Shown one piece after another: positions 11,178-12,120 of a DNA stretch of 64,000 nt. Each line of letters opens with the position of its first letter. The first letter of the stretch is position 1. The position numbers were made by a program, and so were the translations under genes. Source of the stretch: a virus; IMG/VR virus record IMGVR_UViG_3300020159_001932, positions 1 through 64,000 of that record; one strand, written 5' to 3'. Below the pieces are notes generated by a model. That model was not told the DNA's origin and searched no databases. It was given only the letters and a program-made list of their open reading frames with translations.

Positions 11178-11561
11178 ATGACAACAACTAATTCCTTCCA
11201 AGAAAACTATCCTTTTGTATCTTGTATCAAATCAAATGATACCGAATATGTCGGGATTGTAATTAACTTTGACAATTTTGTCACCAGTATCTATGACATT
11301 TCTGTTATAAAATCCACTGATGAAAAAAAATTGTTTTTAGAACTAGGAGAAGTTTGGTGGTGGGAAAGTAATAGAAAAATACCAATTAATATTTTTCTAA
11401 AGAAAGAAATGCAGTTTTTTAGATATGCTATCAAAACTTTTAATAGCAAAGATATTGAACTTGTTTTTGGACCAAGTGTTAATTTAAGCGAAATTGCCGA
11501 AAAGCGTATAAAACGTAAATCAATACAACTAATTAGAACTCCTAGGAGTATCCGTAGCTAA
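11178..11561 (+). CDS. Hypothetical protein (WWWESNR motif)
   Basis: In frame with track ORF 11127..11561; ATG 11178 avoids overlap with the divergent gene; TATAAATA upstream near 11132. Confidence 0.7.
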   Translation: MTTTNSFQENYPFVSCIKSNDTEYVGIVINFDNFVTSIYDISVIKSTDEKKLFLELGEVWWWESNRKIPINIFLKKEMQFFRYAIKTFNSKDIELVFGPSVNLSEIAEKRIKRKSIQLIRTPRSIRS

Positions 11562-12120
11562 TTTGTTCACAAATTAAATTCATCTGAACAACAATAGCCG
11601 ATGCATATGCAACTGCATGTGCCTTTTTAAAGAAATACTCATCTCCGTCTGGTTTTTGCCAAACTTCTTTCTTCACGACAGACCAATCTTTTCCAATTAG
11701 ATAACGTTTCGCTGGTCGAATCATAGCCAGCACAGCAGCCAATTCCTCTACACTTGTTGGTTTCATTATCCGTAGTGTAGCACCATGCCCGTTCACATGA
11801 AACAGCAGATTTACAAAATCGTCTTGCAAGAGTAGATCCCATAATGGTTCCTGGTTAAGTAAGTGAATTAAATGTTCTTCGTTCTTAATACCTTGGTATA
11901 AATTAACATTAAGAAAATCTACCTTGAAGTATCCTCGTTTTTCTGCTTCTTTGTAGTCAATACTTGAACAGCCTGTTAATGGATTTACAGGAATACTACT
12001 GACATATACTCCTGTATTATGACGACGGGATACACCTTTTTCAATTATGGATGCAGGAACATGCTGGATAATGTCCAGGGCCTTGGTTCTGTCAGCAAAG
12101 TCTATATCAATATCCGGCAT
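11542..12120 (-). CDS. Miniature DnaE / family C DNA polymerase-like protein (192 aa)
   Basis: MPDIDIDF, H.TGV, FKVDFL, LAMIRP and FKKAHAVAYA appear in Pol III alpha order; no PHP or OB domain. Confidence 0.8.
   Translation of the reverse strand: MPDIDIDFADRTKALDIIQHVPASIIEKGVSRRHNTGVYVSSIPVNPLTGCSSIDYKEAEKRGYFKVDFLNVNLYQGIKNEEHLIHLLNQEPLWDLLLQDDFVNLLFHVNGHGATLRIMKPTSVEELAAVLAMIRPAKRYLIGKDWSVVKKEVWQKPDGDEYFFKKAHAVAYASAIVVQMNLICEQISYGYS

Follow-up and report, generated by a model that had tools for sequence, protein, structure and literature searches.

The DNA analysed here (the window) is a stretch of 64,000 nucleotides (nt), positions 1 to 64,000 of the IMG/VR virus record IMGVR_UViG_3300020159_001932, a linear contig of 132.6 kilobases (kb) with an estimated completeness of 36% that derives from an uncultured giant phage. 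Its minus strand carries, at positions 11542–12120, a small gene related to the catalytic core of the alpha subunit of bacterial DNA polymerase III (Pol III), DnaE, and this gene very probably encodes the C-terminal unit (C-unit) of the split minimal Pol III alpha typical of group 2.2 jumbo phages. It is an intact open reading frame (ORF) that opens with ATG and runs for 192 codons to a stop. The predicted product of 192 amino acids (aa) begins with MPDIDIDF (residues 1–8), followed, in the order known from DnaE, by HNTGV (34–38), FKVDFL (65–70), AMIRP (132–136), and FKKAHAVAYA (164–173), and it ends 19 residues past the last of these motifs. The same motifs in the same order, with a stop just after the last one, had been recorded in an earlier interpretation of this DNA made without database searches (the sequence-only reading). 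An alternative in-frame TTG at 12192 would give a product of 216 aa. Since exactly 192 aa were found in 77 of the 120 close homologues listed, and the alignments of isolate-phage homologues begin at residues 1–3 of the window protein, the ATG at 12120 was taken as the start. This ATG and the stop of an upstream PfkB-like kinase gene fall within 14 nt shared by the two genes.

The window protein matched the PHROG family phrog_11778, named 'DNA polymerase', over its full length (E-value 2.3e-68, residues 3–186 on profile positions 8–194 of 197) and, with an E-value of 1.5e-7, phrog_405, a polymerase family of 1190 positions. When a family profile based on 85 diverse members, 30–83% identical to the window protein (alignment A1), was compared with the PDB sequences, all nine matches at E ≤ 1e-4 were Pol III alpha, the best having an E-value of 1.9e-5. 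The Pfam models PF07733 and PF17657, taken alone, stay below their curated cut-offs and do not convince, but the question is decided by the more sensitive comparisons described here and below. A Pfam search of the 192-aa protein found no PHP or other Pfam domain.

The motifs could be placed individually on bacterial enzymes. In a single-sequence alignment, MPDIDIDF corresponds to MPDIDIDF/MPDIDTDF of Mycobacterium tuberculosis DnaE1 (413–420) and Taq Pol III alpha (461–468). The family profile aligns the K66/D68 motif on K553-F-D555-F-L of the Escherichia coli alpha subunit, and FFKKAHAVAYA on residues 743–769 of the same protein, 'YGFNKSHSAAYAL', while AMIRPAK falls on the 'RPG' segment at about 639–641 in E. 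coli alpha and about 662–664 in M. tuberculosis DnaE1. Residues D3, D5, K66, D68, and P136 are invariant in the 85 sequences, and conservation is 90% or higher at D7, H34, G37, I134, R135, K138, K165, H168, and A173. The three aspartates which the sequence-only reading had named as catalytic (D3, D5, and D68) are all retained. Altogether, the ORF resembles family C to a degree far above what chance would produce.

The AlphaFold 2 (AF2) model of the 192-aa protein, built with alignment A1, has a mean predicted local distance difference test (pLDDT) score of 96.1 and a predicted template modelling (pTM) score of 0.86. Structural alignment of this model by VIA-align placed 189 of the 192 residues on residues 461–841 of Taq Pol III alpha (Z 9.8, root-mean-square deviation 3.6 Å), 184 residues on E. 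coli alpha 400–781 (Z 9.0), and 190 residues on PolC 971–1358 (Z 9.5). The top 15 chains were all C-family polymerases with Z of 6.3–9.8, followed by the first unrelated chain at Z 3.3, and the best 16 PDB matches in Foldseek were C-family polymerases throughout. The predicted fold thus superposes on E. coli DnaE, the comparison for which the sequence-only reading had called. The 192 residues follow, in the same order, some 380 residues of DnaE, of which about half are skipped. By our reading of the alignments, the skipped half would comprise the thumb and part of the fingers, given the E. coli alpha domain boundaries that we take to apply. The HNTGV strand would match the strand that follows the thumb in DnaE. 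Judging from the alignments and the superposition, there is no hint in the model against the convergence of D3, D5, and D68. Alignment to E. coli alpha within residues 400–781 only also agrees with the loss of the thumb, much of the fingers, and the PHP, clamp-binding, and OB domains that had been proposed from the motif spacing.

Homologues of the window protein are numerous and uniformly short. In a word-indexed protein search, 7987 of the 8000 scored candidates were significant, corresponding to at least 7987 clusters at 90% identity, and the 120 listed are 188–203 aa long. An exhaustive search of 1.84 billion representatives yielded 444 clusters at E ≤ 1e-3 and 283 at E ≤ 1e-10; the best 150 of the 444 comprise 74–233 aa, with one exception of 375 aa, and the short members among them are presumably fragments. 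These lengths speak against the idea that the gene arose by decay or recent truncation from a host-derived full-length dnaE, or is an inactive structural relic, as its size, much below that of DnaE, and its Pfam scores under the cut-offs might suggest. Among proteins of 337–2000 aa, 719 candidates contained one match, P0393. All 80 related IMG/VR loci, whose products are 66–99% identical to the window C-unit, carry an intact C-unit ORF of 186–194 codons. The proportion of nonsynonymous differences from the window gene (pN) is 0.004–0.22, and the ratio of nonsynonymous to synonymous rates (dN/dS, omega) is about 0.05–0.17 wherever dS could be computed, rough values in view of the mostly saturated synonymous sites (pS ≥ 0.63 except for the near-identical locus L006). 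The gene is under purifying selection, its catalytic residues are invariant, and descent from a full-length dnaE by decay, like inactivity, is extremely improbable; recent truncation and pseudogene formation in particular were ruled out by the conserved length and omega. The view of a streamlined rather than broken gene is upheld by the conserved lengths, by the intact frame at all 80 loci, and by omega; its homologues are not full length, and dN/dS is not near 1.

The single match among longer proteins, P0393 (550 aa; ENA, on a contig of 17492 bases), has an N-terminus of the bacterial Pol III alpha type, with exonuclease (PF00929) and PHP (PF02811) domains, to which the final 33 residues of a phage C-unit (82% identity) are joined abruptly. 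A chimeric assembly is the probable explanation, a real recombinant a less likely one.

The position at which the window protein begins explains its size in a different manner. It starts at position 96 of PF07733. The preceding positions are found on a separate protein, the N-terminal unit (N-unit): gp316 of phage Atu_ph07 (177 aa, ending ...GVGRGS...FSEFLE) covers PF07733 positions 18–94 and also matches phrog_11127, and the N-unit of the closest long relative of the window's phage (G001) covers positions 14–96. By these sequence coordinates, the C-unit starts exactly where the GRGS-bearing N-terminal half of the palm ends, and the cut is clean. Nucleotidyltransferases of the Pol-beta type need an hG[GS] triphosphate-binding loop ahead of the DxD strand. 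Because the palm half with the GS loop is absent from the 192-aa ORF and located on a separate protein of about 170 aa, the ORF represents half of a catalytic core, and not a self-contained one, as the title of the sequence-only reading would suggest. Since the N-unit ends at position 94–96 and the C-unit begins at position 96 with an initiator methionine, there is no room for intein halves, and therefore the two chains must associate non-covalently.

The N-unit family is as large as that of the C-unit: all 8000 scored candidates were significant (at least 8000 clusters at 90% identity), and those listed are 165–172 aa long, all with PF07733. In isolate phages, a tblastn search matched the C-unit in 96 records and the N-unit in 111. 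The numbers of C-unit/N-unit records by host genus are 34/34 for Escherichia, 11/11 for Pseudomonas, 11/10 for Klebsiella, 8/8 for Salmonella, 8/8 for Erwinia, 4/4 for Yersinia, 4/4 for Xanthomonas, and 2/2 for Agrobacterium. The additional N-unit records include phages of Bacillus and Clostridium, presumably carriers of a full-length Pol III. Among five long relatives of the window's phage, an N-unit of phrog_11127 is present in the three most complete, more than 130 kb from the C-unit gene. A search for a complementary DnaE fragment was thus successful in three of five long relatives but not on the record of the window itself. Since that record is 36% complete and has no N-unit, the partner for the window's phage is inferred from the relatives; a gene missing from so incomplete a record may still be present in the phage.

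Assembly of the two halves was modelled with the window C-unit (alignment A1) and the N-unit of G001 (alignment A2). The predicted complex reached interface scores (ipSAE) of 0.92, 0.91, and 0.92, against 0.16 for the best of three controls; the ipSAE mark applied is attained by 58 of 80 solved complexes and by 2 of 110 mismatched pairs. At least 96% of the contacts are common to the runs, and the partner has a pLDDT of 85 or more. In the predicted complex, the DxD strand (C-unit residues 2–9) lies against N-unit residues 136–145, the WGVGRGSS segment.

The exceptional 375-aa homologue, P0244 (ENA), is a head-to-tail fusion of an N-unit and a C-unit with a junction of about 5 residues. Its residues 14–181 match the N-unit profile with E 2.2e-27 and residues 187–373 the C-unit profile with E 2.1e-50, and a single PF07733 match of 59.6 bits, above the cut-off, runs over the junction. 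No relative of P0244 was found in a scan of IMG/VR viral contigs, and its single-sequence fold model was unusable (pLDDT 35.7).

The hG[GS] loop on the co-occurring N-unit, with PF07733 cut at positions 94–96, is also what makes a stand-alone activity highly improbable. According to that proposal, put first in the sequence-only reading, the 192-aa protein alone adds nucleotides, whether as a terminal transferase, in primer tailing, or in the transfer of modified nucleotides. Retention of the three carboxylates and K66, the confident fold of the single chain (pLDDT 96.1), the lack of the partner gene on the window's record, and the 14-nt overlap with a nucleoside diphosphate (NDP)-heptose-type cassette would be compatible with it. 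However, the halves co-occur in isolate phages and in three of five long relatives, the fused form P0244 exists, and the heptose genes adjoin the C-unit gene in only a small minority of the related loci (see below). Nothing was found that would point to end-tailing or modified-nucleotide transfer. The other possibility raised from the sequence, one subunit of a split polymerase, proved to be the right one in view of the split point, the distant N-unit, the complex prediction, and a published description of the same kind of enzyme.

That description is given by Iyer, Anantharaman, Krishnan, Burroughs, and Aravind (2021, Viruses 13:63, PMC7824862), who, in the part of their article devoted to it, report from sequence that group 2.2 jumbo phages have a split minimal Pol III alpha and propose it as a picture of the ancestral Pol III module. 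Their C-unit of about 190 aa, the Mg2+- and template-binding one, with the DxD motif at its start and reduced fingers, corresponds to the window protein; the distant N-unit corresponds to that in the relatives of the window's phage; and the carriers are RaK2/PA5oct/Atu_ph07-type phages with a T4-like replisome. All 96 isolate-phage records with a C-unit homologue belong to jumbo phages of this type; the complete genomes listed have 284–490 kb, next to a small number of shorter, fragmentary records. GenBank labels on the homologues read 'DnaE-like DNA polymerase III alpha' or 'DNA polymerase'. Nothing essential distinguishes the window copy from the published C-unit. It comes from a fragment of an uncultured phage, is at most 55% identical to that of any isolate phage, and overlaps an NDP-heptose-type cassette that most relatives lack; no near-identical DNA was detected in isolate phages by megablast. 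The kind of finding is therefore already known, and in length, starting point, full-length profile match, metal-binding carboxylates, and KxD lysine the window gene agrees with the published C-unit. The phrase 'split DNA polymerase III' was found in the literature in Iyer et al. only. A term search of the PA5oct preprint (10.1101/406421) revealed no mention of polymerase genes, and a 2026 preprint (PMC13648687) on chimalliviruses and their split polymerase deals with another enzyme in another group of phages. Beyond the sections of Iyer et al. on the split enzyme, the present analysis adds a quantified linkage to primosome genes, one fused form, and a high-confidence model, which is a modest extension.

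Compared with bacterial DnaE and PolC (PDB 2hnh, 3e0d/2hpi, 5lew, and 3f2b), the C-unit has the same palm-finger core with colinear motifs, the same catalytic aspartates and the lysine of KxD, and 184–190 residues superpose at 3.5–3.9 Å (Z 9.0–9.8). Unlike these enzymes, it lacks the thumb and the PHP, clamp-binding, OB, and tau-binding parts, spans in 192 residues what takes DnaE about 380, has the N-terminal half of the palm on another chain instead of a complete palm in one, and scores below the Pfam gathering cut-offs. It is a homologue of the DnaE/PolC core that stands outside the replicase family proper.

A family-C polymerase made from two distant genes is also known in cyanobacteria, whose DnaE is split by an intein. 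The two distant genes are a common feature, whereas the C-unit and N-unit leave no room for an intein and differ from the cyanobacterial halves in split site and size.

The positions of the C-unit gene, its motifs, and the genes downstream of it are compiled in Table 1. Counts of neighbouring genes refer to those of the 80 related loci that have enough flanking DNA, and the order was also checked in the isolates Phosso, Atu_ph07, RaK2, and PA5oct, whose C-units are 44–55% identical to that of the window.

Table 1. The C-unit gene with its conserved motifs and the adjoining downstream genes (window positions)
Feature	Position	Strand	Basis and remarks
C-unit coding sequence, 192 aa + stop (predicted metal- and template-binding)	11542..12120	-	ORF, phrog_11778, AF2, VIA-align
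PDIDIDF, residues 2–8: putative metal-binding D3 and D5, plus D7	12097..12117	-	Conservation; alignment to M. tuberculosis DnaE1 and Taq
HNTGV, residues 34–38: predicted palm strand after a short hairpin standing in the place of the DnaE thumb	12007..12021	-	Model strand E30–39
FKVDFL, residues 65–70: K66 and third catalytic Asp, D68	11911..11928	-	Profile alignment to E. coli alpha
AMIRPAK, residues 132–138: finger motif	11707..11727	-	Conservation; alignment to 'RPG' segment
FFKKAHAVAYA, residues 163–173: finger motif	11602..11634	-	Conservation; alignment to E. coli alpha 743–769
Small convergent ORF, 144 aa, function unknown	11127..11561	+	phrog_11637, E 6.4e-33; 20-nt overlap with 3' end of C-unit gene
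Virion-structural-protein-like gene, 280 aa	10315..11157	-	phrog_14467, E 3.6e-13
DnaG/gp61-type primase, 333 aa	9304..10305	-	phrog_47 'DNA primase', E 2e-39; 1.2 kb downstream of C-unit gene
DnaB/gp41-type replicative helicase, 487 aa	7848..9311	-	PF03796 (DnaB_C), E 1.3e-16

An opposite-strand ORF of the phrog_11637 type lies just downstream of the C-unit gene at 72 of 73 related loci and in the four isolate phages, and the virion-structural-like neighbour was present at 61 of 61. The primase was found downstream at 58 of 58 loci and the helicase at 51 of 51, so that the C-unit gene is located 1–3 kb upstream of primase and helicase in every related locus with room for them; this gene order is conserved in Phosso, Atu_ph07, RaK2, and PA5oct as well. 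The T4-type setting assumed in the sequence-only reading is consistent with the adjoining DnaG-type primase and DnaB-type helicase and with a family-B polymerase (PolB) in two of the five long relatives. On the window's own record, the search for a B-family polymerase was unsuccessful.

Upstream of the C-unit gene, at 12107–13987 on the minus strand, there are three overlapping co-directional genes for a PfkB-type kinase, a cytidylyltransferase-like protein, and an NAD-dependent sugar epimerase; the PHROG of the second is named heptose kinase/adenylyltransferase, and the group looks like an NDP-heptose-type cassette. The kinase occurs upstream at 11 of 77 related loci, the cytidylyltransferase at 11 of 77, and the epimerase at 10 of 75. 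The cassette is a lineage-specific insertion in a replication block and offers no clue to the function of the C-unit. With only 11 of 77 loci showing it, a functional link of the C-unit to the NDP-heptose genes was ruled out as a general feature.

The main replicase of some RaK2/PA5oct/Atu_ph07-type phages may be split too. In Atu_ph07 (L004, 16878–19847), the family-B polymerase is annotated as two adjacent genes, gp276 and gp277, and in the long relative G002 the PF00136 match comes in two pieces inside one frame of 890 aa.

Several observations count against the assignment to a split polymerase, or against parts of it. At the level of the single protein, the Pfam gathering cut-offs are not reached by PF17657 (fingers; 12.4 bits versus 22) or by PF07733 (11.9 bits versus 23.9, positions 96–118), and the saturation of synonymous sites leaves omega approximate. 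With regard to the partner, no match to the N-unit family phrog_11127 was obtained at E-values up to 1 on the 132.6-kb, 36%-complete record, where a PF07733 search matched the C-unit itself only, and the N-unit is missing from two of the five long relatives, all five being incomplete (42–83%). The high score of the modelled complex may reflect the memory of the model for intact DnaE, and would in that case express likeness to DnaE rather than binding; the fusion P0244 is a singleton on one contig of 2415 bases (n = 1) and hence a weak observation. The linkage to the primase, observed among relatives that are 66–99% identical, is partly a matter of shared ancestry. No family-B polymerase was found on the 132.6-kb, 36%-complete record with PF00136 or with the PolB of G001 as a query, and three of the five long relatives, all incomplete records, had no PolB match. 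Finally, no bench test of activity, expression, or interaction of a split mini-Pol III was found in the literature.

Taking these points into account, we still consider that the gene encodes the C-unit of a split minimal Pol III alpha, for which the following mode of action could be proposed. The C-unit would supply the second half of a Pol-beta-type palm, with the DxD strand (D3, D5) and the KxD strand (K66, D68), together with a much reduced finger module bearing the motifs IRPxK and FKKxHAxAYA. It has no thumb, PHP domain, clamp-binding part, OB fold, or tau-binding region, and only about half of the fingers. The N-unit, which has about 170 aa and whose gene lies at a distance of tens of kb to over 100 kb, would contribute the preceding palm half with the GRGS triphosphate loop. 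Upon docking of the two chains, which would involve neither an intein nor splicing, the GRGS loop would come to lie against the DxD strand and a single active site would form, in which the N-unit positions the triphosphate of the incoming dNTP and the C-unit provides the metals and the remaining fingers. Because a thumb, a clamp-binding motif, an OB fold, and a PHP or exonuclease domain are lacking, such a heterodimer would be expected to be distributive or poorly processive and non-proofreading, acting as an accessory enzyme beside a family-B replicase. That the assembled N-unit and C-unit form an active templated DNA polymerase is, in our estimation, probable, with appreciably less certainty than the identity of the gene.

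The role of such a polymerase can be suggested only tentatively. The reading we prefer is that it extends, at the fork, the primers which the neighbouring primase makes, because of the fixed linkage to primase and helicase and by analogy with Bacillus subtilis DnaE, with repair synthesis as the main alternative. B. subtilis DnaE extends RNA primers before hand-off to PolC (PMC5627055, PMC5737612). Like the proposed heterodimer, it is a C-family polymerase in an accessory role that cooperates with a primase while another enzyme is the main replicase, and it is the functional analogy we favour; in contrast, it is a full-length single chain, and for the split enzyme the analogy rests on the linkage to primase and helicase genes alone. 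A more specific version is conceivable, with a similarly limited likelihood: the split mini-Pol III might be a dedicated primosome polymerase, resembling Pol alpha or B. subtilis DnaE, that docks on the gp61/gp41-type primase-helicase, adds a short piece of DNA to each RNA primer, and hands it to the family-B replicase. It is suggested by the position of the C-unit gene upstream of primase and helicase at all loci with room for them and by the same order in four isolates.

About as credible as either of these is that the chains assemble into something other than a fork polymerase, namely an enzyme of repair or translesion synthesis, or else a nucleotidyltransferase, template-independent or with a signalling role, that acts in phage-host conflict. 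Low processivity and a lack of proofreading, predicted from the missing thumb, clamp-binding, OB, and PHP parts, would suit an enzyme of this kind, as would the presence of a separate family-B replicase in relatives. On the other hand, the conserved finger motifs IRPxK and FKKxHAxAYA have their aligned counterparts in the DnaE fingers that bind DNA and dNTP, which favours templated synthesis, and the genes invariably linked are those for primase and helicase rather than any of repair or defence.

If the primosome proposal is true, these phages would have a T4-like replisome with a three-step primer hand-off carried out by the smallest known templated polymerase of family C, made of two chains. 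To our knowledge, a three-step hand-off of primers has so far been known only from Firmicutes and eukaryotes. The family to which the window gene belongs is very large, experiences strong purifying selection, and seems to occur throughout a major clade of giant phages. No smaller version of the bacterial replicase core is known to us than this one, whose two chains together have about 360 residues, and the mini-Pol III is a tractable model of the minimal needs of a family-C active site.

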